Below are positions 14,544 to 57,064 of a stretch of DNA of 64,000 bases, one piece after another; the first letter of the stretch is position 1, and every line of letters starts with the position of its first letter. Origin of the DNA: Escherichia phage vB_EcoM_E9.1. The notes beneath the pieces were generated by a model. That model made no database searches. It saw nothing but the letters and a program-made list of their open reading frames with translations, and had not been told where the DNA came from. The stretch is from sequence record PP886230, one strand, 5' to 3'. Position numbers and translations under genes: made by a program.

Positions 14544-14972
14544 ATGAATATCGAACAAACTATCCGTGAACATTCTTTCTTCGCTCCAGAAACTGGTCGT
14601 GTTATTGAGAGCGTCAAAATCGAAGAACTAATGGTCAATGTTAAATACAAAGAACCAAATGATGAGATTAGCAGTACTTTTTGTGCTCTACGTGCACCAT
14701 TCCGTAATGAAAAAGCTAAGAAACCAGCATATGTTCTTGCCATTGCACTGGGTTGTGTTGTAAAACTTGCAGTTGATGAAAATCTTCTGAATATTAAAGT
14801 TGCACCAAGCAATGACGATGAAAACATTGATTTGAACTTTGATGGTTCTCTTGATGAAGATGTATTTTTCCAACAGTCACTTGTTTACGACTTCCGTACA
14901 GTGACACATTCTCACATCAAGTTCATTAATGAAATGGTTGAGATTGTTGCTGAATACGAAGAATCTCTCTAA
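14544..14972 (+). CDS. EE-x-FFQ family small protein
   Basis: C-terminal ...DEDVFFQQSLVYDF...; RBS AAGGAA. Confidence 0.6.
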   Translation: MNIEQTIREHSFFAPETGRVIESVKIEELMVNVKYKEPNDEISSTFCALRAPFRNEKAKKPAYVLAIALGCVVKLAVDENLLNIKVAPSNDDENIDLNFDGSLDEDVFFQQSLVYDFRTVTHSHIKFINEMVEIVAEYEESL

Positions 14973-14981
14973 GTAAATACA

Positions 14982-15006
14982 AAAGCCTCCATTATGGAGG
15001 CTTTTA
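14982..15006 (+). terminator. intrinsic terminator
   Basis: GCCTCCA-TTA-TGGAGGC hairpin followed by TTTT. Confidence 0.65.
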
Positions 15007-15025
15007 TCACATAAGGAAATGAAAT

Positions 15026-15577
15026 ATGATAGACCAAATTAAAATCCTTACAAAGCAAATCACTGATTTTCTTTCTGATAAAGATGGATTTAATACAGAA
15101 GTAAAAATGCACGGTGTTAGTGTTGATGTAATTGCACCAAATGGTAATGTAACAAGTTACGACATGTATGAATTACTTCTTTATACTCTAGCAGTACGTA
15201 AACTAGGTAGTGATATTGAACTCAATATCAATACTGATGAAAGTGGGAATAAAATTTTTGCAATCAACACCAGTGCTAAATTCGATATCAGTACTGAAAT
15301 TAAAAAAATAAATGAAAGTTTTATTGGCTTTAAGCATGAATCAATTCAAAGTGTTTTTATTGGAAAGCAAACTTCTAATAGTGAATGCCCATATTGTGTA
15401 ATGACTTTATATAAAGATGGAAACTGGATGCGTCAAGATTTAGTATTTGCTGAACTTCTGTATGCATTTACACATGAACTTAAAATCGAATTGGACGATA
15501 GTGTTTATTGCTTTAAGAAAATTCGAAATATAACTAAAGATATACAAACCCAACTTAAAGAATTAAATGATAAATAA
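15026..15577 (+). CDS. hypothetical protein
   Basis: Track ORF; RBS AAGGAAA. Confidence 0.55.
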   Translation: MIDQIKILTKQITDFLSDKDGFNTEVKMHGVSVDVIAPNGNVTSYDMYELLLYTLAVRKLGSDIELNINTDESGNKIFAINTSAKFDISTEIKKINESFIGFKHESIQSVFIGKQTSNSECPYCVMTLYKDGNWMRQDLVFAELLYAFTHELKIELDDSVYCFKKIRNITKDIQTQLKELNDK

Positions 15578-15693
15578 ATATACCAGAAATGGTTAACATA
15601 TCATGTTACTTTCCTCCCTTACATAATAATGATGCGTTATTATATTTTCATTTTGTTCTTATTCCCCTTTTGGTACAAAATCATTTTAGTACT

Positions 15694-15717
15694 GCCCCGA
15701 TCTTCGGGGCATTTTTC
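15694..15717 (+). terminator. intrinsic terminator
   Basis: GCCCCGA-TCT-TCGGGGC hairpin followed by ATTTTT. Confidence 0.7.
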
Positions 15718-15737
15718 TTATCTAAAATTGAGGATAT

Positions 15738-16133
15738 ATGAAGAACAATATTGGAACTTCAATAATTAAACCACTTTCTTATTACCTTGAAAAATTTAGA
15801 AGCACAAATGGTAATAAATTTAATAATATATTTCAGTTCTCTCATAAAGAATATATTACAATTGATCATTTTTCAAAGAAACTAATGTATGTAAATGATA
15901 ATAGTCATATTATTAAATTATCATTCGATATTGAGTTAGATAAATTAACATTTACTGAATACATTAATCAAAAAACTTCTTTTTTATGTCAATACAATAG
16001 GAAAGTATATAGTAATATTTCTATGTATCTAAATGATGAATATCACTTTCAACAATCTACAATAGAAGAAGTATTGTTCAGTACTGAAGAATTAAAAGAA
16101 CTATATTACTGGTATAATTATTTCACATCTTGA
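15738..16133 (+). CDS. EE-x-FFQ family small protein
   Basis: C-terminal ...NDEYHFQQSTIEEV...; RBS GAGGA. Confidence 0.55.
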   Translation: MKNNIGTSIIKPLSYYLEKFRSTNGNKFNNIFQFSHKEYITIDHFSKKLMYVNDNSHIIKLSFDIELDKLTFTEYINQKTSFLCQYNRKVYSNISMYLNDEYHFQQSTIEEVLFSTEELKELYYWYNYFTS

Positions 16134-16188
16134 CATTATTGTGGGTTTATCCTACAATACATGATGATGCTGCATTGAGGATAAATTT

Positions 16189-16599
16189 ATGAGTTTAGAT
16201 TTACACAATGAACTAAAATATTTTTTAGATTTGGACATATCAGAATTGAACCACCACGTCAATCATATGACTAGTACTGTATGGTGGTCTAATGAACAAG
16301 ACGACCCAATTATCCAACTAAGTGATGAATCGTCAATTATGCGATTTTATAAGATTAATTATAAAAAGAACATCAAGATCACATATGTACCATACAAAAA
16401 CATACTACTAGTCGAAACACTTAATCCAAGTTCTTTATTAAAAATCACCGATTTAGATACATTACAAACAAGTGAATCTTTATTCCAACGTTCATTAGTT
16501 GATGATCTTGGTGGTATTACTTTTGAAGATATATTACAATTGAAGAATATGTATAGTGAATTGTTGGAGATTAAAAACACTTTAGTAATGGGGAATTGA
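16189..16599 (+). CDS. EE-x-FFQ family small protein
   Basis: C-terminal ...SESLFQRSLVDDLGGITFEDILQL... Confidence 0.6.
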   Translation: MSLDLHNELKYFLDLDISELNHHVNHMTSTVWWSNEQDDPIIQLSDESSIMRFYKINYKKNIKITYVPYKNILLVETLNPSSLLKITDLDTLQTSESLFQRSLVDDLGGITFEDILQLKNMYSELLEIKNTLVMGN

Positions 16600-16600
16600 T

Positions 16601-17005
16601 ATGGTAAGTTTACTAGATATTGATAATACCAGTTTAGTGCTGGTGAAAAAAGGTTTAATTCCAAATTCTAAAAAAATTGATTATGCTGTTATTGAAACAA
16701 ATATTGGAAATATCTGGTACGACTCTGAAAGGGATATTGTGTTTAGCTGTGTAGACAGTGATCGTTCTGAATGTTGTAGAGTCGGTCATGACGGACAATT
16801 TGTTTTTGAATTTCGTTATTGGAAGGACGCAAAATTTCACCAAGAACTGGTTGCTTTGTCAAATGAACTATATACAGAAGAATCGTTCTTCATGGCTAGT
16901 ACTATTAATGATTTTGGTTCAGTTACATTTGAGTACTATAAAAAAATATACGCACTATCCAGAGAAGTTATGAAAATTATCAGAACTGCTGAAGGTAAAG
17001 AATAA
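16601..17005 (+). CDS. EE-x-FFQ family small protein
   Basis: C-terminal ...EESFFMASTINDFGSVTFEYY... Confidence 0.6.
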   Translation: MVSLLDIDNTSLVLVKKGLIPNSKKIDYAVIETNIGNIWYDSERDIVFSCVDSDRSECCRVGHDGQFVFEFRYWKDAKFHQELVALSNELYTEESFFMASTINDFGSVTFEYYKKIYALSREVMKIIRTAEGKE

Positions 17006-17006: not shown

Positions 17007-17384
17007 ATGACTACTATATATGATATTTTGGGTGTTCTGAGTAGAAATATAGATGATGATTTTGTTATTGTTCAAGATACTAGAAATACATTTCAACTAC
17101 CAATAGGTTCACCAGATAGGTTAATTTTTAATAGATACTCAAATGAACTAACTTACATCCATGATGGGATTGCAATTGTATCAGTTTCTATAAACGACTA
17201 TACAATACGATATGTATATGACTTCAACGATTATTGTACAAGAATCCACAGTATTGATATTTCCGAAGAGGAACTATTCCAATTGTCATTGATTGAGAAA
17301 AATGTAATAGGAATTACAGAAATTGGTATTATTAAAAAAGCATTAAACTATACAAATATAAGAATTAATGGTGGGTGCGGATGA
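17007..17384 (+). CDS. EE-x-FFQ family small protein
   Basis: C-terminal ...EEELFQLSLIEKNVIGITEIGII... Confidence 0.6.
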   Translation: MTTIYDILGVLSRNIDDDFVIVQDTRNTFQLPIGSPDRLIFNRYSNELTYIHDGIAIVSVSINDYTIRYVYDFNDYCTRIHSIDISEEELFQLSLIEKNVIGITEIGIIKKALNYTNIRINGGCG

Positions 17385-17836
17385 ATGTTGACGAAATAAA
17401 AAATCATTTTGAAATTGCAATGTCATGTGAATTTGACACACAACGTGTTCATGACCCGAAAGAACATATACGCATTTGTTGTGAATTGTCAGATGATTGT
17501 AATATTTTTATTGGAAAAACCTATGACATGATCGATCTTTCATGTATAGATCCATTGGAAAGAAAAACAAAATATTTATATCTGTACAACACAACATCAG
17601 ATACGATTGCAATACAACTAATATCAACCACAACATCCCAAAGTTATTATAACATAACTGAGGTTAGTAGTTTAACGTTAACCGAAGAAGGATTCTTTCA
17701 ACAATCGCTTATTCGTGAAATTGGTGTTAGTTATGATGAGTTAAATGTATTAGTAGATTGTTTCGAAAAATTGAGTACTTTTGTATTATCCCTTTTTAAT
17801 ATACAGTCGCAAAATCCAATGGTGGTGAAATGCTAA
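17375..17836 (+). CDS. EE-x-FFQ family small protein
   Basis: C-terminal ...EEGFFQQSLIREIGVSYDELNVL... Confidence 0.6.
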   Translation: MRMNVDEIKNHFEIAMSCEFDTQRVHDPKEHIRICCELSDDCNIFIGKTYDMIDLSCIDPLERKTKYLYLYNTTSDTIAIQLISTTTSQSYYNITEVSSLTLTEEGFFQQSLIREIGVSYDELNVLVDCFEKLSTFVLSLFNIQSQNPMVVKC

Positions 17837-18270
17837 ATCCAAGTAAATTTCTCCACTTACTTTCGATAACATCAATACCGGATCTTACCAGTGAAACTAA
17901 TGAATATCGTGAAGCTGGGGTGGTGTCTATGGAACTCGATACATTTGACCACAAATGCTATGTGACATATGACCCACCGCGTTATGGTAAAGAACATTCT
18001 TCTTTTATTTTTGTATTCGTATACACTGTATATGATAATACAACACTTGATGATGTTTGTATTGACACTTACGAAATTTGTGATAATATCATAACTGATG
18101 ACAACAATAATTCATTTGATATGTCACTATATAACACAGAAGAATCGTTGTTTCAACTTAGTACTGTTATTGATGCACCATCATTAGAAGATATAAAACA
18201 ATTTCAAGAACATCTTGACGCAGTTCGTGAGATGTTCTATAATCATTATCCAGAAGTAGAGTTCAATTAA
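17830..18270 (+). CDS. EE-x-FFQ family small protein
   Basis: C-terminal ...EESLFQLSTVIDAPSLEDIKQF... Confidence 0.6.
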   Translation: MLNPSKFLHLLSITSIPDLTSETNEYREAGVVSMELDTFDHKCYVTYDPPRYGKEHSSFIFVFVYTVYDNTTLDDVCIDTYEICDNIITDDNNNSFDMSLYNTEESLFQLSTVIDAPSLEDIKQFQEHLDAVREMFYNHYPEVEFN

Positions 18271-18927: not shown

Positions 18928-19788
18928 ATGAAACCTATCCGAGTACTTTCTCTTTTTAATGGAATGAGTGTGGGATATATGGCATTGCAAGATGCTGGTA
19001 TCCCAGTTGAAAAATATTATTCATCCGAAATTGACAAGTACGCAATAGCTGAATCTCAAGCTAACTTTCCTGATATTATCCAATTGGGTGATGTAACTAA
19101 GTGGAGAGAATGGGATATTGAGTGGGATAAAATAGATTTATTAATGGGTGGTTTCCCATGTCAAGCCTGGTCAGTTGCAGGTAAACAGGGTGGTTTAAAT
19201 GATATACGTGGGCAGTTATTTTTAGTAATGGTTGAAATTTTTGATCATATCAAAAGTCTCAATCCTAACTTGAAATTTCTGTTTGAAAATGTTAAAATGA
19301 AGGAAGATTTCAAAGAATACATTAATAGTATTTTAGGAATCACGCCAGTACTGATAAACTCCCAGCATTATACGCCTCACTTCAGGCAGAGATATTACTG
19401 GTACAGTACTGATAAGCTTTTTATACCACCTGCATTATCCAATGCACCTAAACTTCAAGATATTATTGAAGATGGTTGGTACACTGACAGAACCGCTTCG
19501 TACTGTATAGATGCTAACTATTTTAAAGGTGGTGATTGTAACCAGTACTTTAATAAATCCAGACGACAATTGGTGTTTCGTGACCCAGTGATCAGTCGTC
19601 AATATCTATTAGAGAATGGCAAAAGAAATATTGACTATAGACACTTAAGTGTAGTAGAATGTTGTAAATTACAGGGTGTTCCTGAAGATTTCTTTAAAGT
19701 GTCTAGTAAGACACAAGCATACAAAATGCTTGGGAATGGATGGACTATGCCAGTTATATCACATTTACTAAGAGAGATATTCTTTTGA
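18928..19788 (+). CDS. DNA (cytosine-5)-methyltransferase
   Basis: Motif I LFNGMSVG, motif IV GGFPCQAWS (PCQ), motif VI ENV, motif VIII FRQRYYW, C-terminal GNGWTMP; RBS AAAGGA. Confidence 0.8.
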   Translation: MKPIRVLSLFNGMSVGYMALQDAGIPVEKYYSSEIDKYAIAESQANFPDIIQLGDVTKWREWDIEWDKIDLLMGGFPCQAWSVAGKQGGLNDIRGQLFLVMVEIFDHIKSLNPNLKFLFENVKMKEDFKEYINSILGITPVLINSQHYTPHFRQRYYWYSTDKLFIPPALSNAPKLQDIIEDGWYTDRTASYCIDANYFKGGDCNQYFNKSRRQLVFRDPVISRQYLLENGKRNIDYRHLSVVECCKLQGVPEDFFKVSSKTQAYKMLGNGWTMPVISHLLREIFF

Positions 19789-20312: not shown

Positions 20313-20828
20313 ATGCCAATTCCTTATGTTAAAATTATTAATAATATTCTCGATTCATGGGAAGATGTTATTACGGGTAAAAAGCAACCATCACCAGTAC
20401 ATGCTTTATCTGGGAAACTTCAATTCAGAATGTCAAACCAAACTGAAACATTTAATAATCATGATATTTGCATTACATTAAAAACACCTATTAGTATTGT
20501 AATTAAAAAAAATAAAGATGATGAATTGACATTATCTATTGGTCGTGATAAAATCATTTTAAGTAATTTGTCTGAAGAAGAATTCTTTCAAAGAAGTACT
20601 ATTATCGATATGAAAGATTTCACATATGAATCATTGGTTGAACTCAATACACGTTTTAACGATATTCAGGAACGATTGCGACCAATTCTTCGTATCGAAG
20701 AAGAAGCCTGGATTGAAAGTATTAGGAAGATGCAAGAAATGTTGAAAGAAAATATTAACAATCTGGGTAAAGCTACAATGGAATTTGGTAAAACTTTTAA
20801 ACTGAACTTTTCAAAGGATCGTAAATGA
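20313..20828 (+). CDS. EE-x-FFQ family small protein
   Basis: C-terminal ...EEEFFQRSTIIDMKDFTYESLVEL...; start moved to ATG 20313 downstream of terminator, RBS AGGTG. Confidence 0.6.
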   Translation: MPIPYVKIINNILDSWEDVITGKKQPSPVHALSGKLQFRMSNQTETFNNHDICITLKTPISIVIKKNKDDELTLSIGRDKIILSNLSEEEFFQRSTIIDMKDFTYESLVELNTRFNDIQERLRPILRIEEEAWIESIRKMQEMLKENINNLGKATMEFGKTFKLNFSKDRK

Positions 20829-21280
20829 AAATTGATAATTTGATTCATGTTTTAGGATCTTTACATAAAATATTATCACATCTACATGAGATAAAGAAAC
20901 TGGGATTTAACATCTCAAATTCAATTGAAACTACATTTAAATATCAATCAATTACTGGTGATGGTTATTACATAATCGAATATACTTATGAAACCGATCC
21001 AGACTTCTATCCTCTTACGTTGAGAATTTATCCAACAAATCCGAGAGGAATTCACGACATATCATCAATTTCACTTGATCCAGATGGTGAAACGAGTATT
21101 GAATACAATAATGATTCAAAACCAGAATTTTACATTGATGATATTAAAATGATGTTCAACGATGAATATGTGTTCCAGCAAAGTACAGTGCATGATGTTG
21201 GAAGTACTAATGGACAATTTTGGAATACATGTTATTATCATATGATTGAAATTTGTAAATTACTAAAAGGTGATGATTAA
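20825..21280 (+). CDS. EE-x-FFQ family small protein
   Basis: C-terminal ...NDEYVFQQSTVHDVGS...; ATGA overlap. Confidence 0.6.
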   Translation: MKIDNLIHVLGSLHKILSHLHEIKKLGFNISNSIETTFKYQSITGDGYYIIEYTYETDPDFYPLTLRIYPTNPRGIHDISSISLDPDGETSIEYNNDSKPEFYIDDIKMMFNDEYVFQQSTVHDVGSTNGQFWNTCYYHMIEICKLLKGDD

Positions 21281-21663
21281 TGAAATACAGCATTGAAGTA
21301 CATTACACTACAGGGGACACTGAAACTGAAGATTCAGTTACCAATACATTGGATGTTCAATGGGAATCAAAGGATGAGGCAGTTGTAGCATTACAGTCTT
21401 TGAAAGAGCATTGGGTATTCTTTAAGAAACTCGATGATGCATATAGTAACGAACGTGCGACAATAATCGATGAAGCCAAACATAAAGAATGGTTTGATCC
21501 AATGTCATGTGAATTCTCTTTCTTTGTAAAAATTGGAGATAAAAAAATTCCAGTACGAACACCGTGGAACGGCTACTTTGAAACTCTTCATAATGCACGA
21601 GTTGTCGCTGTTGATAATCCTGAGCAAATCGATTTCGATTCATTGGACTGGAAAAAACTATGA
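21280..21663 (+). CDS. hypothetical protein
   Basis: Track ORF; coupled start. Confidence 0.55.
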   Translation: MKYSIEVHYTTGDTETEDSVTNTLDVQWESKDEAVVALQSLKEHWVFFKKLDDAYSNERATIIDEAKHKEWFDPMSCEFSFFVKIGDKKIPVRTPWNGYFETLHNARVVAVDNPEQIDFDSLDWKKL

Positions 21664-22103
21664 CAGTACTGCACCAATTGAAGAAGGTTAAGCATCCAGT
21701 TGTATACGAGGATTGGAAACGACAGAAGTTGATGGGTGATTTTTATTTCCCAAAATCTAAAGTACTAGCAACGTCAAAAGCTATATACTTGAAATATAAG
21801 GATGAAGATTGTTTGTGTATTCAAATGGGATTCCATCCTAAAGTTGGTTTGTTTACAACAAATCAAACATTTTATAAATTTAGAATTCAAAAAGATACAT
21901 TTAGTATTCATATCGAAAAACATGATGTACAAGATACAATTTATCGTGTGGAAAGTGAGCCTTTGAATCTTGTTGAGATCCCGTACAATAATTTAGAAGA
22001 AATGTACTTTCAGCAGTTGACAATACAAGAAGACTTTGGTATGATAGGACTTCAAGAGTTAGAGATGATTAAACAAATTCGTGATATCTACTTTAAGGAG
22101 TAA
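21660..22103 (+). CDS. EE-x-FFQ family small protein
   Basis: C-terminal ...EEMYFQQLTIQEDFGMIGLQELEMI... Confidence 0.6.
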   Translation: MTVLHQLKKVKHPVVYEDWKRQKLMGDFYFPKSKVLATSKAIYLKYKDEDCLCIQMGFHPKVGLFTTNQTFYKFRIQKDTFSIHIEKHDVQDTIYRVESEPLNLVEIPYNNLEEMYFQQLTIQEDFGMIGLQELEMIKQIRDIYFKE

Positions 22104-26482: not shown

Positions 26483-26875
26483 ATGACTGAATCAGAACTA
26501 CACGAAATGATAGATTTCATTTATGAAATGGTACAAGATAAAAATAACATCAATACAATTGCATCAGGCCCAAGACAAATTGGTAACCAAATAACATATT
26601 CTTTGTCCTTATGGTTACACCCGTGCATTAAGGTTGATTGTTTGTATTTCCGTCCTGATATTGATGCTTATTATTTTGTCAATCATGATGCATTAATGAA
26701 ACCACATAATCGTCCAGTTGATGATACCTTTGTGACACACCCATTTTACCTGGCTGATTCCGAAGAAGATGAGTTTCAAAAGAACACAACGTTAAGCCCA
26801 GGTGAAATTTGCATCCCTTACACACTAAAAGATAAAATGATTTACATCACAGAAGTTATGAAAACATGCTGGTAG
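26483..26875 (+). CDS. EE-x-FFQ family small protein (divergent)
   Basis: C-terminal ...SEEDEFQKNTTLSPGE... Confidence 0.5.
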   Translation: MTESELHEMIDFIYEMVQDKNNINTIASGPRQIGNQITYSLSLWLHPCIKVDCLYFRPDIDAYYFVNHDALMKPHNRPVDDTFVTHPFYLADSEEDEFQKNTTLSPGEICIPYTLKDKMIYITEVMKTCW

Positions 26876-26922: not shown

Positions 26923-27492
26923 ATGAACTTTATTAAATTCAACACATATGAGTCAGAAGCATACTTTAATACAAATAATAAATTTAATATTATTCTTAAA
27001 GACGGAACGGTTGTTATCGGAGTATCATTGCTTTCATTTGATGGCGAAAAACTCAAAACTGTTTATAAATTCACCAATCTTGATGGTGATTACTGGGATA
27101 CGTCAGATGTATCTAAAATTTGCACACATTATGTATTTGAATCTATTGAAGTTGGTGATGGCTGGGCATTGACCTGTAATGGTAATAAAGTATTTTCTGG
27201 TAACATATTTGGAGTAATTTCCAGTAAAGAAATCGTAGACCATCATCTTCATGTTCTCAATAATAACGCCAACACTTATACACCTGATAATATCAAAATT
27301 CACGATATTGTAACATATACTGATTATAATGGTTTCAGACATAAAGCAATCGTAACTGAAGTTAAAAAACCAAAAAATTATTTCGACCACGGTTTAATTG
27401 AAGTATATATGGTAGGTGGCGAAAAACAATACTTTGATCATTTCACTTATACTGGTTGGGATAGATTCCTAACCGTTATTGAGGAATACTAA
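26923..27492 (+). CDS. hypothetical protein
   Basis: Track ORF; RBS AAGGAG. Confidence 0.55.
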   Translation: MNFIKFNTYESEAYFNTNNKFNIILKDGTVVIGVSLLSFDGEKLKTVYKFTNLDGDYWDTSDVSKICTHYVFESIEVGDGWALTCNGNKVFSGNIFGVISSKEIVDHHLHVLNNNANTYTPDNIKIHDIVTYTDYNGFRHKAIVTEVKKPKNYFDHGLIEVYMVGGEKQYFDHFTYTGWDRFLTVIEEY

Positions 27493-27493
27493 C

Positions 27494-27982
27494 ATGCCGA
27501 TTCGTGGTGTCCCAGAACCATTAATGGAAGTTATTAAGCATGTTCGCATTGGAGATCGAGAAGTTAATCTTCGCCGTAATAACATTTATTACTTTAAAAC
27601 TTCAGAAATGAGTTCTGTGCAGATTGTCATTGGTACATCTATTAAGATTACTCGTGTACTTGATGGTAGTACTGACTTCGTTGAATATAATGTACTTACT
27701 AATAAAGTAACGCATATATATAAATGGAGTGGGTATAAAACTATTAAGTATGAATTTGACTTAGCTAGAACTGAAGAAGAACGATTTATGCTGAGTACTA
27801 TCAATCCGGCAAACTATCCCGATCTTGATGCATTTTTGCTAATTTTAAAATTGTATAATGAAGCAAATCAGAAAGCTAAAGAGTATGATAGAATCATGTA
27901 TGAACGCCGAAAAGAACGTGCACAAAAAAGTTATGATCTGTATGATAGCCCATACGTGAAATATAGTAAGGGGTCGAAATGA
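27494..27982 (+). CDS. EE-x-FFQ family small protein (divergent)
   Basis: ...RTEEERFMLSTINPANYPDLDAF...; start moved to ATG 27494 behind GAGGAA. Confidence 0.5.
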   Translation: MPIRGVPEPLMEVIKHVRIGDREVNLRRNNIYYFKTSEMSSVQIVIGTSIKITRVLDGSTDFVEYNVLTNKVTHIYKWSGYKTIKYEFDLARTEEERFMLSTINPANYPDLDAFLLILKLYNEANQKAKEYDRIMYERRKERAQKSYDLYDSPYVKYSKGSK

Positions 27983-28383
27983 ATAACGAAGTTCAAATTG
28001 TCATTACTCCACCTATACAAAGTCTGGATGTATCCATTAGTGATTTTTTGGAAAAATACTATGAATGGTTTAATGAAGATTCAGTAATTTATAACCATTC
28101 ATTACCTGATGGTTTCGTTGAGCTTATTGAATTAAATGCCAAATCACTATACTTCTGTGTTGAATATAATGATTATATGACAGATGAAGCATATCGTTTT
28201 CGTTGTACATTGTATCCTAACCATTTTTCCATTGGTTATAAAGACTATCAGTACTGTACCACTAACTATAGTGTTGAGGAAGAATTTCAGTACAATTTAC
28301 TTTATCCTGATTTAGATTATACGATTGCAGTACTGTTGACTAAAATCATGGATTTTTATAAAGATAAATATAATGCAGCCTAA
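27979..28383 (+). CDS. EE-x-FFQ family small protein (divergent)
   Basis: ...SVEEEFQYNLLYPDLDYTIAVL...; ATGA overlap. Confidence 0.5.
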   Translation: MNNEVQIVITPPIQSLDVSISDFLEKYYEWFNEDSVIYNHSLPDGFVELIELNAKSLYFCVEYNDYMTDEAYRFRCTLYPNHFSIGYKDYQYCTTNYSVEEEFQYNLLYPDLDYTIAVLLTKIMDFYKDKYNAA

Positions 28384-28558
28384 GACATTTGATGAGTGGT
28401 TTAATCTACACTATAATATAAATGCAGCAGATATATACTATTTTAAGCTTGAATTGTATATATCATTGCGTAACCCAATTGAGTACTATAACAACATTAT
28501 CAATTGTGATGATTTTGGTACATATTTTAGTATAGCCGTTATGGATATTAAGAGATGA
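28373..28558 (+). CDS. hypothetical small protein
   Basis: Track ORF. Confidence 0.35.
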   Translation: MQPKTFDEWFNLHYNINAADIYYFKLELYISLRNPIEYYNNIINCDDFGTYFSIAVMDIKR

Positions 28559-28734
28559 CACATGAAGAATGGATGGCAATGATGAAAAAACGTTATGACC
28601 AGTTTGGAAATGGATTTATTGATGGTCATTTCGATATTTTACGAGACAAATATAAGTTCGAATCATATGTACTAGATGAGAATGGAAATCGTTGGTTCAT
28701 CTATGAGCTTGCGGTTAGAGACAAAAAAATATAA
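28555..28734 (+). CDS. MTHEEWM-family small protein (59 aa)
   Basis: Below track cutoff; MTHEEWMAMMKKRYDQFGNGFIDGHFDILRDKYKFESYVLDENGNRWFIYELAVRDKKI. Confidence 0.5.
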   Translation: MTHEEWMAMMKKRYDQFGNGFIDGHFDILRDKYKFESYVLDENGNRWFIYELAVRDKKI

Positions 28735-28760
28735 TAACCTTTTCCATTGTCCATTGCAAT

Positions 28761-28989
28761 GCTTTCTTTACAGAAGAATAAATGAAACACTTAATTGAAC
28801 TGGATACATAAAATGACACACAAAGAATGGATAGATGAACTAAAATTCAAACATAATCCTTTTGGTTTTGGTATACGCCAAGGTCATTATGATGTGTTAA
28901 AAGATAAACAACTTTTCAAATCATTTGTACTTGATGCGGATAGCAACCACTGGTTCATCTATGAGCTTGCAATTAGAGACAAAAAATAG
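28761..28989 (+). repeat. duplicated segment, copy A (pairs with 29280..29514)
   Basis: gctttctttacaGaagaa...cttaattgAactggatacataaaATGacacac... near-identical to the copy at 29280; extends through the paralogous gene. Confidence 0.6.
28813..28989 (+). CDS. MTHEEWM-family small protein
   Basis: MTHKEWIDELKFKHNPFGFGIRQGHYDVLKDKQLFKSFVLDADSNHWFIYELAIRDKK; ATG 28813 inside track ORF 28795..28989. Confidence 0.5.
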   Translation: MTHKEWIDELKFKHNPFGFGIRQGHYDVLKDKQLFKSFVLDADSNHWFIYELAIRDKK

Positions 28990-28994
28990 TAAGA

Positions 28995-29330
<336 letters not shown>

Positions 29331-29331
29331 A

Positions 29332-29514
29332 ATGACACACGAAGAATGGATGTCCAAACAGCATAAAGAACATGACTGCTTTGGGAATGGCATTCGTCAG
29401 GTACATTATGATATATTAAGAGATGAAAATCTTTTCAGGTCATATGTTTTGGATACCAGAAAACCCTGGTTTATATGCGAACTGGCATTTAGAAAGTCAA
29501 ATAATCAAAACTAA
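29332..29514 (+). CDS. MTHEEWM-family small protein
   Basis: MTHEEWMSKQHKEHDCFGNGIRQVHYDILRDENLFRSYVLDTRKPWFICELAFRK...; ATG 29332 inside track ORF 29314..29514. Confidence 0.5.
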   Translation: MTHEEWMSKQHKEHDCFGNGIRQVHYDILRDENLFRSYVLDTRKPWFICELAFRKSNNQN

Positions 29515-29530
29515 ACAAGGAATACAAAAA

Positions 29531-29749
29531 ATGGAAACAACTTTATTTGAAGTTATTCAATCATTAAAACCTGAAGATGAGGTTCAAGTACTACTACATG
29601 GTTATCGTGTAAAAGGTACTGTGGTTTTAGTCAATGATACAACATTGGTTATTACAGAAACAAACCCATATGATAGTAATCAACTTGTCAATATCCATAT
29701 CGATATCACTGGAATTATTGGTGTCGGTGTATCTAAAACACTTGCATAA
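29531..29749 (+). CDS. hypothetical protein
   Basis: Internal ATG of track ORF 29423..29749 behind RBS AAGGAA. Confidence 0.45.
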   Translation: METTLFEVIQSLKPEDEVQVLLHGYRVKGTVVLVNDTTLVITETNPYDSNQLVNIHIDITGIIGVGVSKTLA

Positions 29750-29802
29750 ATCATTAATTCATTATATAATGATTATCACTGGTTCTAGATGAGGATAATA
29801 TT

Positions 29803-30075
29803 ATGCATTTTGAAAAATTCAACGTAAATCGTAACACACGCATTGAAGTTCTTTATGAAACTCAAGACACCATTAGTATTCGTACAAGTAGTGGGGATGT
29901 ATATCATGACTGTACGATTGGCTGGGAACAGGGAAGAACGCGTAGTGCAGTATTTGATAATTATCGCTTTTATCAAGGAGACACTACGATTTGGCCTGAA
30001 TACGTAGAAGATATTGCGTTTGAAGATGAACATAAAGATGAATTTATCAAATTTAATCCTCAAACTGAATCATAA
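29803..30075 (+). CDS. hypothetical protein
   Basis: Track ORF; RBS GAGGA. Confidence 0.5.
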   Translation: MHFEKFNVNRNTRIEVLYETQDTISIRTSSGDVYHDCTIGWEQGRTRSAVFDNYRFYQGDTTIWPEYVEDIAFEDEHKDEFIKFNPQTES

Positions 30076-30079
30076 ATAA

Positions 30080-30208
<129 letters not shown>

Positions 30209-30212
30209 AAAT

Positions 30213-30314
<102 letters not shown>

Positions 30315-30318
30315 AACC

Positions 30319-30479
30319 ATGACGCATGAAGAATGGATGAATGACATTAATTTTAGATATGCAGGTTTCGGTAACTGGAGAAAGTATCATTGGGAAATCA
30401 TGTCAGACCCAGCAGAATACGATAAACTTATAAACCATGAAGCGTATCCGTGGTTCTTTATTGAAATAATGGTACGAAC

Positions 30480-30483
<4 letters not shown>
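30319..30483 (+). CDS. MTHEEWM-family small protein (54 aa)
   Basis: Below track cutoff; MTHEEWMNDINFRYAGFGNWRKYHWEIMSDPAEYDKLINHEAYPWFFIEIMVRT. Confidence 0.5.
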
Positions 30484-30645
<162 letters not shown>

Positions 30646-30653
30646 AAAAAAAG

Positions 30654-31067
<414 letters not shown>

Positions 31068-31124
31068 CTAAATAATTCAGTACTGAGGATATTAATATGT
31101 TTAAAGATGAACGTCCAGATTTGT

Positions 31125-31162
<38 letters not shown>

Positions 31163-31168
31163 GAATTC

Positions 31169-31510
31169 CACAATCAGACGTATATGGTGTAAGTTACGTC
31201 GATGCAATCCAGAACAAGATCTCTGGTACTCTAGGAAGTGGTGAATGTTAACCTAGACGGGTTTGATAATTGGACGATAGGCAATTATTACTTGACTAGC
31301 AGGTTTAAACTAGAGGTGACTATCCTTCACCAAACTGGAAAACCGGATGGACTTTTATTTAAAAGGGTAAGGCGTGGAAATATGTTTACAGTAGTTGCTT
31401 TTAGTATCCTGTACGCCCCACGTCAAGGTAGCCGAAAGGCAAGTTAAAACGGGTGGTTATAAAGCTGAATTAACAGCGACGTTTAAAAGCGTCACCATCC
31501 ATTTTTTTTT
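31169..31510 (+). ncRNA. candidate structured RNA or leader
   Basis: ~340 nt GC-richer stretch between promoter 31134 and a 9-T run at 31502-31510; only a doubtful 69-aa ORF (31238..31447). Confidence 0.25.
31478..31510 (+). terminator. putative terminator (weak stem, long T-run)
   Basis: GACG-loop-CGTC then ACCATCCA + TTTTTTTTT. Confidence 0.4.
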
Positions 31511-31526
31511 AATTAAAGTTGGTGAT

Positions 31527-32164
<638 letters not shown>

Positions 32165-32165
32165 T

Positions 32166-32335
<170 letters not shown>

Positions 32336-32358
32336 CGAAATTACAATAGGAAATTAAA

Positions 32359-32544
32359 ATGCAACTTTTAATTCTTTCAATATTGTATATTATTATAATG
32401 GTTCCGATATCAATACGTTTAATTACAGTTGAACGATTTTTATCGAAACATGGAAATAGATCTATGATCTTTGTACCAATTGGGCTTATATTGTTTGGTA
32501 TTTTTGCATTTATAATGGGAATTAACGCTACATTCATTTCATAG
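32359..32544 (+). CDS. small membrane protein
   Basis: Track ORF; two hydrophobic helices; RBS TAGGAAA. Confidence 0.4.
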   Translation: MQLLILSILYIIIMVPISIRLITVERFLSKHGNRSMIFVPIGLILFGIFAFIMGINATFIS

Positions 32545-32553
32545 GAAACAAAT

Positions 32554-45351: not shown

Positions 45352-46317
45352 GTGAAAAAGCTTGATTTAAATACAATTGCCGAAGAAGTTCTGGATGAAT
45401 GTTTTGCTAATGAAGAAGTCAACACACTAGAAGCCTTAGATTTCGTTGAAGATAAAGATGATAATGAAGGTAAAGTACAAAGCAGTTTCAAATATAATAT
45501 TACACTTAAGCGACCACCAAATGTTTCCAATGAAGATCTAATTCGTGATATTCAAGCTGGTATCAATGTAAAGAAAAACACTGAACTGTTAGTTCGTTAC
45601 AATTATGGACTGATTATTGATGTAGCAAGTAAATGTACTTGTTATATCCCATTTGAAGATAAGATTTCATATGGTGTTGAGGGGTTCATGAGAGCACTAA
45701 AAACCTTTGATCTTAATAAGAATGTTAAGTTCATTACCTATGCTTCTTCTAGTATTTACATGACAGTCTATAACGAAAGTTCTGACGCTAACTATATGGT
45801 ACACTTCCCACGTTATATGAGTGTTCATAAGATCAAAGTAAAAAGATTCTGCCAGGAATATATGCGTAAACATGGTGTTCGCCCAACACCTGAAATAATC
45901 TCAGAGGGTACTGGGATTGAGATTCAGCATGTTAATAATTGTTTGTTATTTCAAAGCGAATACACTTCGCTGGATGCACCATTAGACGGTGTTACAGATG
46001 GTACATTAGGTGACATTATTCATTCACCTGCTTCTGATTTTAACCTCAATGTTGATAGTATCCGTGCACCTTTGCGTTATGCTATCAATGAACTGACCAA
46101 CGAATTGAGTACTAAAGAACGTGAGATTATCCAGCGTGTTCATGGTCTAGGTGAATATGAACCTGAAACGCTTCGTGAGATTGCTGATAATGGTTTTGTT
46201 GATGATAATGGAAAATATGTTAAATCCCGTTCATCAATACATCGAAAGTACAGTGAAGCTATGCAAAAGCTTAAGAAGTTAGTACTTGCAAAAGGGTACG
46301 AATACGAAGATTTCTAA
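45352..46317 (+). CDS. sigma-70-family RNA polymerase sigma factor
   Basis: Region 2-like ELLVRYNYGLIIDVASKC...VEGFMRALKTFD...FITYASSSIY...HFPRYM; region 4-like KEREIIQRVHGLGEYEPETLREIADN; GTG start 6 nt after AGGAG. Confidence 0.65.
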   Translation: MKKLDLNTIAEEVLDECFANEEVNTLEALDFVEDKDDNEGKVQSSFKYNITLKRPPNVSNEDLIRDIQAGINVKKNTELLVRYNYGLIIDVASKCTCYIPFEDKISYGVEGFMRALKTFDLNKNVKFITYASSSIYMTVYNESSDANYMVHFPRYMSVHKIKVKRFCQEYMRKHGVRPTPEIISEGTGIEIQHVNNCLLFQSEYTSLDAPLDGVTDGTLGDIIHSPASDFNLNVDSIRAPLRYAINELTNELSTKEREIIQRVHGLGEYEPETLREIADNGFVDDNGKYVKSRSSIHRKYSEAMQKLKKLVLAKGYEYEDF

Positions 46318-50735: not shown

Positions 50736-50936
50736 ATGTTTACTTTATATCTCGCAGTAGTTCTCACCAATGGTGAAATCACTCGTACTATTGGTGAAGG
50801 TGTATATAAAACACCAGACCAGTGCTACTCTGCCACTCATTGGCCTCGCGATAGTGGGGATGAAACTCGCACTGAATTCAAATGCATGAAAGTAAAAGGT
50901 GATTTTGTTAACCTTAAGGTTATCGAGGCGAAATAA
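50736..50936 (+). CDS. small protein with N-terminal hydrophobic segment
   Basis: Internal ATG of track ORF 50679..50936 behind AAGGCGA. Confidence 0.45.
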   Translation: MFTLYLAVVLTNGEITRTIGEGVYKTPDQCYSATHWPRDSGDETRTEFKCMKVKGDFVNLKVIEAK

Positions 50937-51454
50937 TGGATATTAATGAGTTGTTGAAATTAGTGTTTAATCGTGAACGCCGCGATACAAGACCAATTGA
51001 ATATCAAGATGTGATACGCATTGAAACTGATTTCTGTTATGGTAAAACAACTCATGACCTTTTGAATCTCTCTGGAAAACGCTATGCTGATGTTTGTTTT
51101 TCAGAGAGAAGTGATGGTTCAGAAATAACGAGTACTGATATTGTTTGTTACGCACGCAGTGCTGATAAATCTTATGAAATAGAACTTATATATTCCCCTA
51201 GTTCTAAAACAAATCATCACCGCCATATTTTATATGATGTTTATACACCACCTGGTATTGCTGAATATTTTGTTATTGATTATAGTACTGAAGAAAATGT
51301 GTTTCAACAAAGTTTGATTCATAACTTTGAGGTGAATGATCCATTAGTACCAAAGTTGTTCAAACTACTTGACACCATAGATGTTGATTTTGAATTTGTT
51401 ATGTGCATTAGAACTTCTTTATTCAATGAATTCATGGAACTTTTTAATATATGA
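50936..51454 (+). CDS. EE-x-FFQ family protein
   Basis: ...TEENVFQQSLIHNFEVNDPLVPKLFKLL... Confidence 0.55.
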   Translation: MDINELLKLVFNRERRDTRPIEYQDVIRIETDFCYGKTTHDLLNLSGKRYADVCFSERSDGSEITSTDIVCYARSADKSYEIELIYSPSSKTNHHRHILYDVYTPPGIAEYFVIDYSTEENVFQQSLIHNFEVNDPLVPKLFKLLDTIDVDFEFVMCIRTSLFNEFMELFNI

Positions 51455-53493: not shown

Positions 53494-53853
53494 ATGAAGA
53501 GTTATATAAAATTAATAGCACTTGTGTGTGCATTATTTTCATGTTTTAGTTATGGTGCAGCAGCAGAAACATATTGTCGTAGTACTAAGGGAACGTGGCA
53601 TGTATTGACTAACGACCCTAGAAATGGTAAAAATATAGTTGTTGATGGTGTGATTTATCGTTTTAAAGTAGAAAGTATTATCGGTAATAAAAAAATCTCG
53701 ACTTATAGAGATGATTCTGGTACATTAGCAAACGTAATATTAATTGTAGACCCAAGAACTGGTAATGGTGATATCTATATAGTAATTTACTTGGACTCAT
53801 CGGTACGCCGTGACCTAGATATAGATAAATTGAACTTACACTGTGAAATATAG
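53494..53853 (+). CDS. secreted protein (signal peptide)
   Basis: N-terminal MKSYIKLIALVCALFSCFSYGAAA. Confidence 0.5.
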   Translation: MKSYIKLIALVCALFSCFSYGAAAETYCRSTKGTWHVLTNDPRNGKNIVVDGVIYRFKVESIIGNKKISTYRDDSGTLANVILIVDPRTGNGDIYIVIYLDSSVRRDLDIDKLNLHCEI

Positions 53854-54244: not shown

Positions 54245-54595
54245 ATGAAAATTATTTTATTTTTTGTATGTATGTTAATGTGTGGATTGTCATATGCTGA
54301 ACCATTGGAAGGTTTAGTTTGTACAGATGGTAATATTAAACATATCTATCAAGGTGATAGTGACGATCGAGATATTGTATATATTGATGGACAATCATAT
54401 ACGTTTGTTAAAGAGCATACAGTAGGCGACATTAGCTTCACTGAGTTTTCTAACGACACAGACCCTAACTTCTTAGCGTTTATTGAAGTAGATGTATATG
54501 AAGATAGTAATGGCACACAATATGCTAAATTAGTTATGATGCGTCGTGGTGCTAAAGAAACTAGTTTTGGTGGCTTGTGTAAATATAAGGATTGA
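54245..54595 (+). CDS. secreted protein (signal peptide)
   Basis: N-terminal MKIILFFVCMLMCGLSYA. Confidence 0.5.
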   Translation: MKIILFFVCMLMCGLSYAEPLEGLVCTDGNIKHIYQGDSDDRDIVYIDGQSYTFVKEHTVGDISFTEFSNDTDPNFLAFIEVDVYEDSNGTQYAKLVMMRRGAKETSFGGLCKYKD

Positions 54596-54845: not shown

Positions 54846-55286
54846 ATGTATGTATATCGTTTTGAACTTAAATTTAGTTACATTGAACCTAACTTAGATC
54901 CTGCACGAACTGTAGGTCCGTTTGCACGGTATTCAACTAGATACAGTACTAAAAATGGATTTGACCGTTTGCTTATGACTACACCTTCTCAATTCCAACC
55001 TGAACCAACTGAGGATGGGATCTATTCAATCAAAAGTGGATGGGTATTTGGCTGTCAAAGTTTGAAAGATTTGTTCAGATTCTTCACTATGGACTTGGGT
55101 AAATTGCATCGTGCTGGGTTTGCTATATCTGTATATGAAGTTCCAGACCACCATGTAGACATTGGTCGTAATCAGGTTCAGTACTATTGCGGTAGTGCTA
55201 AATTAGTTCGTATCATGTCAGTTAAGGAAGCAAAGGATGAGTTCCGACAAAGTAAAAGAGAAACACATGAGGTAATATATGGATAA
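54846..55286 (+). CDS. hypothetical protein
   Basis: Track ORF; RBS AGAGGA. Confidence 0.5.
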   Translation: MYVYRFELKFSYIEPNLDPARTVGPFARYSTRYSTKNGFDRLLMTTPSQFQPEPTEDGIYSIKSGWVFGCQSLKDLFRFFTMDLGKLHRAGFAISVYEVPDHHVDIGRNQVQYYCGSAKLVRIMSVKEAKDEFRQSKRETHEVIYG

Positions 55287-55623
55287 AACTCAAATAGAAT
55301 TAAAGAAATTTGTTTCATTCTATTTTCCTGATGACCCACGTAATTCACAAAAAGATATTGAATATTATAATATCCTATCTAAACAGTTAATGAGAAAGTT
55401 TCAACAGTGTTTAACTATATTCAATACAGATGGAAGACGTAGATACCGAATCGTTTCAATGAATGATGAAAACGCAAATTTCTTTGATTACGATGTAGTT
55501 TTTAGAGCATATAATGATGATCGTATAAAATTAAATTATGATCAAATTATACTTGACCTGAATGTTATATGTGTTATAATCACTCACGTAGCCGAACTTA
55601 ATGGTTTTAAAGAATGGTATTGA
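55279..55623 (+). CDS. hypothetical protein
   Basis: Track ORF. Confidence 0.5.
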   Translation: MDKTQIELKKFVSFYFPDDPRNSQKDIEYYNILSKQLMRKFQQCLTIFNTDGRRRYRIVSMNDENANFFDYDVVFRAYNDDRIKLNYDQIILDLNVICVIITHVAELNGFKEWY

Positions 55624-55637
55624 ATAGAGGATAACAT

Positions 55638-55904
55638 ATGAAGCTTAAATTACAATATAATGGATTTACTTTACGTAATGATACTGAATTTATTAATCGT
55701 TCTCCTGGTGCTGAACTGTTTTTACGAGAGATGAACATTCCTTTCATCATTACTACAGTGGGCGACCGTGAAGTTCTACAATATGCAGAGCATCCGATTA
55801 TTGATGTTCCTTGGTACTCTGAGCATATGTACATGGATATGGCACGTCGCTACAACTGTAAGTTCGTAGTTGAAGGTGATAAAATTACAGTCGAATTTAA
55901 ATAA
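55638..55904 (+). CDS. hypothetical protein
   Basis: Track ORF; RBS AGAGGA. Confidence 0.5.
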   Translation: MKLKLQYNGFTLRNDTEFINRSPGAELFLREMNIPFIITTVGDREVLQYAEHPIIDVPWYSEHMYMDMARRYNCKFVVEGDKITVEFK

Positions 55905-55916
55905 GGTAAATTAAAA

Positions 55917-56210
55917 ATGATCAGTACTTCAGTTAATGAAAGCATCGTCGCTGACGTAGAAATGGTTAAAGAATGTGCAGATGAAACTCTTCGTGATATG
56001 TACATTAATGATTTAATTACTGAATACGGTAGTCGTGGTGTACACGAATTTATTCGTTTAAGTGGAGAGTTGATGAAAAATCGAATTCGTATGAAGCTTA
56101 ACGTACATCCAAAAGCATGGGCATTTACATTAAAATACGCAGAAGATATTGTGAATTTGCGTCGAACTGAAGTATATGAACGTTTGCACAATGGTATGTT
56201 AGATAAATGA
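55917..56210 (+). CDS. hypothetical protein
   Basis: Track ORF. Confidence 0.5.
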   Translation: MISTSVNESIVADVEMVKECADETLRDMYINDLITEYGSRGVHEFIRLSGELMKNRIRMKLNVHPKAWAFTLKYAEDIVNLRRTEVYERLHNGMLDK

Positions 56211-56262
56211 TTGTAAAAAAGGAATTCTTAAATGAATTCCTTTTTGTTTATAAGGTATAGTA

Positions 56263-56484
56263 ATGAAATATATAGTACTTGTACTGATATTATTCAGTAC
56301 TGTTGTAAGTGCTAAACAAAAAGAATATGTTAAATGTATAAATTATGAAGAGAAATATGTTGAAACATATAAAAAAAGTATAATTAAAAACGTTTCGATT
56401 ACTAACAGAGCAACAATCATTGTACTTAAAAATGGGTTAATTATGCTATATAAACCACACGTTAAATGTGAAATTATTAATTGA
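56263..56484 (+). CDS. small secreted protein
   Basis: N-terminal MKYIVLVLILFSTVVSA. Confidence 0.45.
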   Translation: MKYIVLVLILFSTVVSAKQKEYVKCINYEEKYVETYKKSIIKNVSITNRATIIVLKNGLIMLYKPHVKCEIIN

Positions 56485-56491
56485 GGAAATT

Positions 56492-57064
56492 ATGAATCGT
56501 AAAGGTCGTTTTAAAGTATCAAAAAAGAACAAAAGTTCTAGGTTTAAACCTATTGTTTTAACAGTTAAATCTAACAAAGAATTAACTGCACTTAGTAAAA
56601 AGATAATTTCATCTAAGATTGAAGTATCATACGTAAATTCATTAAAATATATGAATGTCAAACCACTGGACCAACTCATTTCACTTATATTTGAACGTAA
56701 TGATTTTGAGATATCAGTAGATGATTATAGAGCCTATAATGCTGGTTTCATTAATGTTACTTGTAATAAAAAACTAACTGAGTTGGAAAATTTGTCATGT
56801 ATAATAAATCTAGATAAAGGTGTTGTGAAGTACCATTTTGTACATTTCACTAATATCAATAATGGAATGGGTGTACAATCCAGACCTATAGTGCCTACGT
56901 GTGATGTTACTAAATTAGCAAAGCTCAATGATGAAGAATATTTTCAAGAAAGCATTGTAACTGAGCATTTAGATGATATAATAGCTACTTACAAAGAATG
57001 CATATGGGTGTTGAATGCTATAAAACCTAAATTGTGTTTAATGAATATTGTTCGTGATTTATGA
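56492..57064 (+). CDS. EE-x-FFQ family protein
   Basis: ...NDEEYFQESIVTEHLDDIIATYKE...; ATG 56492 behind GAGGAAA. Confidence 0.55.
   Translation: MNRKGRFKVSKKNKSSRFKPIVLTVKSNKELTALSKKIISSKIEVSYVNSLKYMNVKPLDQLISLIFERNDFEISVDDYRAYNAGFINVTCNKKLTELENLSCIINLDKGVVKYHFVHFTNINNGMGVQSRPIVPTCDVTKLAKLNDEEYFQESIVTEHLDDIIATYKECIWVLNAIKPKLCLMNIVRDL

Follow-up and report, generated by a model that had tools for sequence, protein, structure and literature searches.

Background

Host-range multigene families are known from large eukaryotic DNA viruses, examples being MGF360/505 of African swine fever virus (ASFV) and the ankyrin/F-box proteins of poxviruses. In jumbo phages the expansion of a small domain is also a known kind of event, and in the survey of Iyer et al. 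2021 (PMC7824862) a zinc-ribbon expansion of about 35 copies in Bacillus phage G was called "unprecedented". In the RaK2 genome paper nearly 10% of the RaK2 proteins were reported to be paralogues of other RaK2 proteins, in the CBB paper 22 paralogous open reading frames (ORFs) were counted and no family was described, and in the phAPEC6 paper arrays of related genes were mentioned. About 83% of the genes in these 350-kb phages are reported to have no assigned function. Here we describe a family of small paralogous proteins with a common C-terminal module that is encoded at positions 14544-57064 of a 64,000-nucleotide stretch of Escherichia phage vB_EcoM_E9.1 (sequence record PP886230; the whole stretch is called the window, and positions are those of the window unless another genome is named). 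Like the zinc-ribbon family of phage G (PMC7824862), it is a small domain present at tens of copies in one jumbo-phage lineage, but the domain is a different, undescribed one, the copy number is higher (41-55), and the carriers are phages of Enterobacterales. The 2021 survey contains no mention of the family, and no description of the motif or of the superfamily was found in the searchable literature, including the CBB, RaK2, phAPEC6 and Sharanji papers. This domain, the size of its expansion and its clade specificity appear to be new.

The window has a G+C content of 33%, and its + strand carries nearly all genes. A 24-kb test stretch was 98.8% identical to Escherichia phage PBECO4 over 96% of its length. 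The window comes from a jumbo coliphage of Asteriusvirus (PBECO4/121Q type), and its close relatives 121Q, phAPEC6, UB and JP4 are Asteriusvirus jumbo myoviruses of about 350 kb. A complete comparison genome was assembled for Escherichia phage EC22.5-2 (OR845138.1), which is 97-99% identical to the window across most of the aligned length.

Family members in the window

An earlier note on this DNA, made from the sequence alone, had listed 22 ORFs of roughly 115-200 amino acids (aa) as carriers of the module. All 22 were present at the listed starts on the + strand and encode 117-190 aa, with ATG as the start codon in 21 and GTG at 17375; in the annotation of JP4 every one of them is a 'hypothetical protein'. 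The multiple alignment of the 22 ORFs contained a clear block, [TS]-E-E-x-[YF/L]-F-Q-x-S-[TL]-[VI]-x-[DE], followed by an amphipathic helix, and the N-terminal two thirds were barely alignable. The longer tail that had been read behind this block, D-[LI]-G-G-[IL]-T-x-E-[DE]-[IL], occurs literally in few members only, the family-wide form being D-[FL]-x-x-[LIF]-T-[LYF]-E-[DE]-[IL].

Membership was assessed by a leave-one-out procedure, which avoids circularity: each member in turn was held out, a hidden Markov model (HMM) of the module was built from the other 21, and this was run against a set of about 1,600 window ORFs, real and shuffled, that included the held-out member. Nineteen held-out members were ranked first with E<=1.1e-3, one (56492) was marginal (E=0.02), and two (26483 and 27979; E=0.13 and 0.25) were inseparable from the decoys. 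An HMM of database representatives gave a clean gap, with 20 window proteins at E values from 6e-16 to 5e-7, then 26483 at E=0.028, and 27979 in the noise (E=0.25). When aligned with hhalign, the motifs of the two weak ORFs were in register (26483, P=0.009; 27979, P=0.021). On these three sequence comparisons, 20 window members are solid, 26483 is borderline and 27979 is unproven, so that the list of 22 stands for 20 of its entries. A profile search of the window ORFs yielded no family members beyond those listed. Leave-one-out HMMs of the N-terminal regions gave no profile-level similarity among the 22 members.

The members lie in tandem runs around a methyltransferase gene (18928-19788) and six tRNA genes (29017-34071), a layout that had been described correctly. 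In what follows each is given with its length, its motif, its leave-one-out E value and, for most, its E value with the HMM of database representatives; all are on the + strand. On the 5' side of the methyltransferase gene lie 14544-14972 (142 aa, LDEDVFFQQSLVYD; 3.3e-6, 3.4e-12), 15738-16133 (131 aa, LNDEYHFQQSTIEE; 1.6e-8, 2.3e-10) and a run of five abutting or overlapping family genes, which starts with 16189-16599 (136 aa, TSESLFQRSLVDDLGGITFEDI; 6.2e-7, 2.5e-14) and continues with 16601-17005 (134 aa, TEESFFMASTINDFGSVTFE; 6.8e-11, 6.3e-16), 17007-17384 (125 aa, SEEELFQLSLIEK; 1e-4, 4e-7), 17375-17836 (153 aa from the GTG codon, TEEGFFQQSLIRE; 1e-9, 3.9e-12), for which an ATG start equivalent to position 17381 is annotated in JP4, and 17830-18270 (146 aa, TEESLFQLSTVID; 2.1e-6). 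On its 3' side follow 20313-20828 (171 aa, SEEEFFQRSTIID, with a charged C-terminal extension; 8.6e-8, 2.8e-14), 20825-21280 (151 aa, NDEYVFQQSTVHD; 1.1e-5, 5.5e-12) and 21660-22103 (147 aa, LEEMYFQQLTIQED; 6.8e-4, 4.4e-12). The protein of 27494-27982 (162 aa, TEEERFMLSTINP; 2e-4, 6.5e-11) is basic, with an isoelectric point (pI) of 9.2, and likewise has a charged C-terminal extension. Within the tRNA cluster lies 30714-31067 (117 aa, TEEEYFQMSTVQE; 1.1e-7, 1.9e-14), followed by 31527-31898, which has a variant motif (123 aa, DEADEFQKRTVYE; 9e-4, 5.3e-7). Next come 34088-34513 (141 aa, TEEKFFQYCLLNDILGLTFEDI; 1.5e-8), whose product matches that of the neighbouring 34506-34871 (121 aa, TEESLFQYSMINDIGGLTLDEV; 7.1e-12) in BLASTP with E=1e-12 over 107 aa, and then 35591-36010 (139 aa, TEEMYLQLNFVHD; 1.1e-3, 2.2e-13), 36012-36428 (138 aa, DSEMFFQLSTVYDLQGLTVEQL; 2.3e-10, 3.7e-14) and 36421-36831 (136 aa, TEEEHFMESTVQE; 3.3e-7, 5.1e-12). 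Two members are isolated, 50936-51454 (172 aa, TEENVFQQSLIHN; 6.4e-5, 5.1e-10) and 56492-57064 (190 aa, NDEEYFQESIVTE), the latter basic (pI 9.2) with a longer Lys/Arg-rich N-terminus; its leave-one-out value is the marginal one, and its value of 3.4e-10 with the database HMM is not independent, as that HMM contains its own database cluster P0004 (99.5% identical).

The borderline ORF, 26483-26875 (130 aa), has the variant SEEDEFQKNTT, in which Glu replaces the aromatic residue that stands two positions ahead of Gln, and was the best-scoring non-member with the database HMM. The unproven one, 27979-28383 (134 aa), has the variant VEEEFQYNLL, with one residue fewer before F-Q, and its candidacy comes only from its position beside 27494 and from the motif as seen by eye. 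Replacement of the aromatic residue before F-Q by Glu characterizes both of these and, to a lesser degree, 31527.

Size and distribution of the family

A profile of the conserved C-terminus was run against 1.84 billion representative proteins, as the earlier note had proposed, and matched 137 clusters at E<=1e-3, nearly all of 80-220 aa and with the module in the C-terminal part. The consensus of the module in these database members is DIPLNL-TEEEYFQQSTVHDFGDLTLEDIKKI, and its near-fixed columns are E (131 of 136), E (127), F (135), Q (124) and S (124). When this consensus was compared by tblastn with 50,697 phage records, 64 matched, all of them RaK2-like jumbo phages of mostly 337-386 kb apart from a few partial records; the cutoff of E<=10 gave this clean, clade-specific list, and a cutoff of E<=0.01 left one record only. 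The hosts of the 64 were Escherichia (33), Klebsiella (11), Salmonella (7), Erwinia (4), Yersinia (4), Cronobacter (2), Pectobacterium (2) and Xanthomonas (1), and the phages include RaK2, K64-1, GAP32, CBB and fHe-Yen9-04. A DNA pattern for EEEYFQQ found 28 loci in IMG/VR, of which three were real members, on contigs of 109-360 kb with several copies each. A database homologue search gave eight matches with the module alignment and 38 with a full-length alignment, all unnamed. A search for related loci with a tighter alignment matched 70 stretches, of which none was confirmed by tblastn.

In the EC22.5-2 genome the module was matched by 55 ORFs at E<=0.01, of which 50 also passed E<=1e-3. All 55 are + strand ORFs in which the motif can be seen by eye, so that the 'at least 22' copies of the earlier note understated the family. 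Twenty of the 55 lie in the counterpart of the window, 31 form a second array at 57-85 kb of the assembly, and four are scattered. The second array spans 57,051-85,033 of OR845138.1, about 60 kb past the window end; its subfamilies include a five-gene run with 'GPW[DG]SEEYYFQ' and a shorter type of about 105-120 aa with 'SEEELFQESLV'. The scattered copies lie at 26.6, 98, 139 and 152 kb. The RaK2-like Klebsiella phage OU509535.1 (347.5 kb) has 41 copies, again in two arrays; every copy is a + strand gene, and the 613 ORFs of its - strand gave no match to the module. Set against the 551 genes reported for phAPEC6, the 55 copies of EC22.5-2 amount to about one gene in ten.

Conservation at the protein level

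The motif is short and the genome is rich in A+T, so that a repeated DNA element, or a chance likeness of a few low-complexity residues in non-coding ORFs, had to be considered as the source of the similarity. Among the window members the conserved Ser is encoded by TCA, TCT and TCG as well as by AGT and AGC, the motif Phe by TTT and TTC, and the Gln by CAA and CAG. Because the conserved Ser uses both TCN and AGY codons, conservation, as judged from the coding sequences, is acting on the protein and not on the DNA. A strict regular expression of the motif had 11 matches in the + strand frames of the window and none in its - strand frames, in line with the empty - strand of OU509535.1. With the leave-one-out statistics, ratios of nonsynonymous to synonymous substitution rates (dN/dS) below 1 (see below) and 137 clusters of like architecture in the protein database added to this, a DNA repeat or chance motif was rejected, and its probability is practically nil; the low-complexity likeness that the earlier note had named as its own refutation did not emerge.

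Predicted fold

Two members were modelled with AlphaFold2, the 34506 protein with a family alignment of 135 sequences. The 34506 model (mean predicted local distance difference test score, pLDDT, 82.6; predicted template modelling score, pTM, 0.76) consists of a helix at 4-15, six strands within 28-78, the motif helix at 87-96 and a helix at 104-120. In the 17830 model (pLDDT 71.6) N-terminal helices are followed by six strands, the motif helix at 104-111 and a helix at 119-139, the module being the most confident part. The two proteins have no detectable N-terminal similarity, yet the elements of their models follow one another in the same order. Paralogues from UB, GAP32, CBB and Yersinia phage fHe-Yen9-04, all of them uncharacterised, have independently predicted models in BFVD, and these matched over the full length with template modelling (TM) scores of 0.5-0.75 at 14-22% identity.

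The models, the full-length BFVD matches and the uniform length and module position in the 137 clusters together indicate one whole-protein, single-domain fold, predicted to comprise an N-terminal helix, a six-stranded antiparallel sheet, the motif helix and a C-terminal helix. The shared fold is thus argued from structure models and a few long pairwise alignments. In the models the motif [TS]-E-E-x-[YF]-F-Q-x-S-[TL]-[VI]-x-D is the first C-terminal helix with the turn that follows it, and T-x-E-[DE] begins the last helix. The structure prediction that the earlier note had called for thereby changed one of its descriptions: what it had worded as a conserved module on divergent N-terminal regions is better read as a single domain, of which the N-terminal part would be the fast-evolving region.

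The view that the motif is not a known domain was upheld. No match at the curated threshold was obtained for any of the 22 proteins in Pfam-A, NCBIfam or PADLOC; isolated sub-threshold Pfam hits, one member each, were to MutS_IV, DUF1940 and Nairovirus_NSm, and NCBIfam and PADLOC gave nothing. Sequence-profile searches of the PDB returned nothing below E=0.016, and no convincing PDB match to the fold was found. Fold hits to the trimeric, acidic p32/gC1qBP/MAM33 family (PF02330) were weak but recurrent; the phage family shares with it the order of elements (N-terminal helix, antiparallel sheet, two C-terminal helices) and the acidity, but its members gave no PF02330 sequence-profile match. For Frataxin/CyaY there was neither a profile match nor a significant structural superposition.

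The same proteins and their orthologues are recorded in PHROGs, where each window member gave a strong full-length match to a family of its own (E 1e-56 to 1e-132). The 22 proteins are spread there over about 20 separate families of unknown function (for example phrog_17453, 24941, 24510, 21500, 38573, 30841, 34619 and 28118), which are linked only by weak cross-hits; the superfamily and its motif are unrecorded.

Evolution and selection

Phage WPEC3, with about 87% nucleotide identity, served as the reference for dN/dS. Phage CMSTMSU (MH494197.1) was dropped as a comparison genome; in its record the region equivalent to the window is broken into many very short coding sequences, and since this fragmented pattern suggests frameshift errors in the deposited sequence, the genome was unsuitable for evolutionary comparison.

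Pooled dN/dS was 0.29 for 20 family genes (median protein identity 76%) against 0.12 for 57 other genes (median 87%), and within the family genes it was 0.33 for the N-terminal part against 0.16 for the 35-residue module. From these ratios the family genes are under purifying selection and are functional but fast-evolving, mostly outside the module; mapped on the predicted structure, the helix-loop-helix is the slowly evolving part, and the sheet and N-terminus evolve about twice as fast.

Among the EC22.5-2 copies, adjacent genes formed significant BLAST pairs in 11 of 54 cases (20%), compared with 25 of 1,035 (2.4%) at a rank distance of at least 10, the five-gene run with 'GPW[DG]SEEYYFQ' being an example of such similar neighbours. 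The best match was in Klebsiella phage OU509535.1 for 24 of the 55 copies, several of them in conserved gene order at 25-59% identity, and a paralogue in the same genome for 27. Because cross-genus orthologues and own-genome paralogues are both this frequent, duplication is both ancient and continuing. The sequence comparisons further show that new copies are arising by tandem duplication and are kept under purifying selection. Same-strand arrays, greatest similarity between neighbours, selection and restriction to one clade are together the marks of a tandemly amplified, lineage-specific multigene family, and the description of the family as diversified has been borne out by its tandem arrays and its fast evolution.

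Localisation and expression

The family proteins are small, at about 105-220 aa, and for the most part acidic. In the window 18 of the 22 have a pI of 4.1-5.0 and the other four of 6.4-9.2; the median for the database members is 4.8. No convincing transmembrane segment was found in family members. Of the 62 proteins detected by mass spectrometry in phAPEC6 virions none is a family member. The virion proteins gp077 (42.88 kDa), gp149c (25.61 kDa), gp150c (21.33 kDa) and gp037c (14.83 kDa) matched window ORFs exactly in molecular weight, and the intervals gp037c-gp077 and gp078c-gp149c, which hold all 22 family genes, are empty in the virion list. Because both intervals are empty, the family proteins are not detectable virion components.

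Around these markers, the gene at 39401-40555, whose 42.88-kDa product matches gp077, is the sole long - strand gene in the window, and the adjoining + strand gene at 38546-39358 corresponds to the virion protein gp078c. The products of 57637-58020 and 58266-59543 match gp037c and gp035c; the former, a 127-aa protein, resembles part of the latter, the adjoining 425-aa protein, and neither has the motif.

Across the whole EC22.5-2 genome, sites resembling sigma-70 promoters in at least 11 of 12 consensus positions were far more frequent on the + strand (97) than on the - strand (11), compared with 8-18 per strand in shuffled sequences. The window region is rich in such sites, nearly always on the coding strand, and none was found at 200-230 kb of the assembly, which we take to be the structural-gene region. 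Two predicted promoters with 11 of 12 consensus positions, both on the + strand and putative in function, stand directly before family genes. One, at 16130-16158 (TTGACA, 17-nt spacer, TACAAT), occupies the gap 5' of the gene run from 16189, and the other, at 30655-30682 (TTGACT, 16-nt spacer, TATAAT), lies about 30 nt upstream of 30714. From the position of these two sites directly 5' of 16189 and 30714 we infer early transcription by the host polymerase; the placing of the family in an early region by the earlier note is plausible from the density and strand of the promoter-like sites.

Perfect promoter sites (12 of 12) occur at 22574, 24434 and 24981. A terminator-like hairpin at 15693-15711, with an 8-bp stem containing six G-C pairs and then a T-run, lies between the ORF at 15026-15577 and the family gene at 15738, and terminator-like sites in the 13-33 kb region numbered 16 against 6.1 expected.

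Proposed function and alternatives

We tentatively favour, at somewhat less than an even chance, a reading of the family as non-virion, probably early proteins that bind diversified targets. The effector role that the earlier note had suggested, in host takeover, anti-defence or exclusion, is likewise a tentative one. The genes would be read early by host RNA polymerase from sigma-70-type promoters, and the products would stay in the infected cell, outside the virion, and act as one-to-one binders or inhibitors. The constant helical hairpin would stabilise the fold and might in addition bind a single partner common to all copies, and through the variable sheet the paralogues would each reach a different target in host takeover or anti-phage defence. 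Such proteins would resemble the ASFV MGF360/505 and poxvirus families, which likewise form tandem arrays of fast-evolving paralogues with a constant element and variable surfaces; there is no homology between them and the phage family, and the likeness is a functional analogy only.

Several points weigh against this reading. Binding and an anti-defence role are argued by analogy only, and early expression is drawn solely from matches to the promoter consensus, which are sparse in the second array. All dN/dS values stay under 1, which means relaxed or mixed constraint and not proven positive selection. The models may have been partly steered by the family alignment that was supplied. Acidity is not universal, some members being basic (pI 9.2). 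All the conserved polar residues (T, E, E, Q, S and D) may simply cap helices and make core contacts, in which case the motif would say nothing of a shared partner.

This last point leads to the alternative that the motif is a folding core only and that the copies, left over from tandem duplication as the genome expanded, are weakly constrained, redundant or dispensable and without diversified targets. T-E-E-x and T-x-E-E do look like helix N-caps from their sequence, dN/dS is raised relative to neighbouring genes, and tandem duplication is cited in the phAPEC6 paper as a route of jumbo genome growth; but a ratio of 0.29 is still clear purifying selection, syntenic orthologues persist across Escherichia and Klebsiella phage genera at 25-59% identity, and the family is kept in every RaK2-like genome that matched, so that we regard this alternative as unlikely, though the least so of those weighed here. 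A little less probable again is that the paralogues assemble with one another, the helix-loop-helix being an oligomerisation interface for homo- or hetero-oligomers, such as p32-like trimer rings, or for a larger cytoplasmic scaffold, and all copies contributing to one joint assembly. An invariant surface common to about 50 co-encoded proteins would suit such an interface, as would the recurrent if weak fold hits to p32/MAM33, an acidic, trimeric family whose elements come in the same order, and the charged C-terminal helical extensions on some members; a scaffold, however, has no obvious need for about 50 fast-diverging subunits.

Two further alternatives, in which the motif is a signal, are both highly improbable. 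The site of tobacco etch virus (TEV) protease is ENLYFQ↓S, and prohead proteases of the T4 type cut after Glu. The motif E-E-x-[YF]-F-Q resembles a 3C/TEV-type site, E-x-x-Y-x-Q↓S/G, and could be a degron or a site at which the proteins are recognised or cleaved. In the consensus TEEEYFQQS, P6 is Glu, P3 is aromatic and P1 is Gln, a pattern followed by most database members (E 131 and E 127, Y/F 101, F 135 and Q 124 of 136). Yet the residue at P1' differs between members (Q 38, L 27, Y 19, E 17), the conserved Ser falls at P2', the motif is predicted to lie in a helix inside a folded domain (pLDDT about 90), conservation runs about 25 residues past it, and the only protease in the virion list is the prohead core scaffold and protease. 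Families of paralogous internal proteins are known from other large phages; the signals of T4 IPI-III and of the phiKZ inner-body paralogues are N-terminal and cleaved by the prohead protease, and the proteins end in the virion. These systems likewise consist of a short conserved sequence on otherwise divergent small phage proteins, and phAPEC6 shows a capsid inner body, so that packaged or ejected internal virion proteins with the motif as packaging signal might be envisaged here too. They differ in that the conserved element of the present family is C-terminal and, in the models, structural, being placed inside the folded domain rather than in a cleaved N-terminal targeting peptide; the N-termini, moreover, share no profile-level similarity, and none of the 22 proteins is among the 62 of the phAPEC6 virion. 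Diversified binders acting in the infected cell are kept as the tentative preference.

Other features of the window

Compared with close relatives, the window is least conserved at 26934-33177, around the tRNA genes, where there are gaps and blocks at 82-96% identity; in the equivalent of this stretch, JP4 and WPEC3 have an HNH endonuclease gene and extra tRNA-Ser and tRNA-Arg genes. The stretch looks like a hotspot of insertion and replacement. A gene for an RpoD/FliA-type sigma factor (45352-46317) lies between the family arrays and the isolated members. Its product and the WPEC3 orthologue share only 59% identity, an unusually low value for a core function. Paralogues without the motif are also present, namely a set of three tandem genes at 61662-62697 (E=2e-8) and a weakly similar pair at 53494-53853 and 54245-54595.

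Conclusions

It is possible, though rather doubtful, that the family is the largest paralogous family yet seen in a bacteriophage (41-55 copies, about 8-10% of the genes of RaK2/PBECO4-type phages), with a new fold and with members that would serve as combinatorial host-takeover or anti-defence binders built from a constant helical 'handle' and a hypervariable sheet. If this were true, phages would have a counterpart of their own to the host-range multigene families of poxviruses and ASFV. The family exceeds the expansion of about 35 copies in the 2021 survey and is a concrete experimental target. One unrecognised superfamily makes up about a tenth of the gene count of these phages, and its recognition considerably simplifies the fraction of genes that is unassigned. 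Should the copies be diversified binders of host or defence proteins, they would offer many new inhibitors, and could help to explain the ability of these phages, which are under study for therapy against pathogenic E. coli, Klebsiella and Salmonella, to deal with varied hosts.

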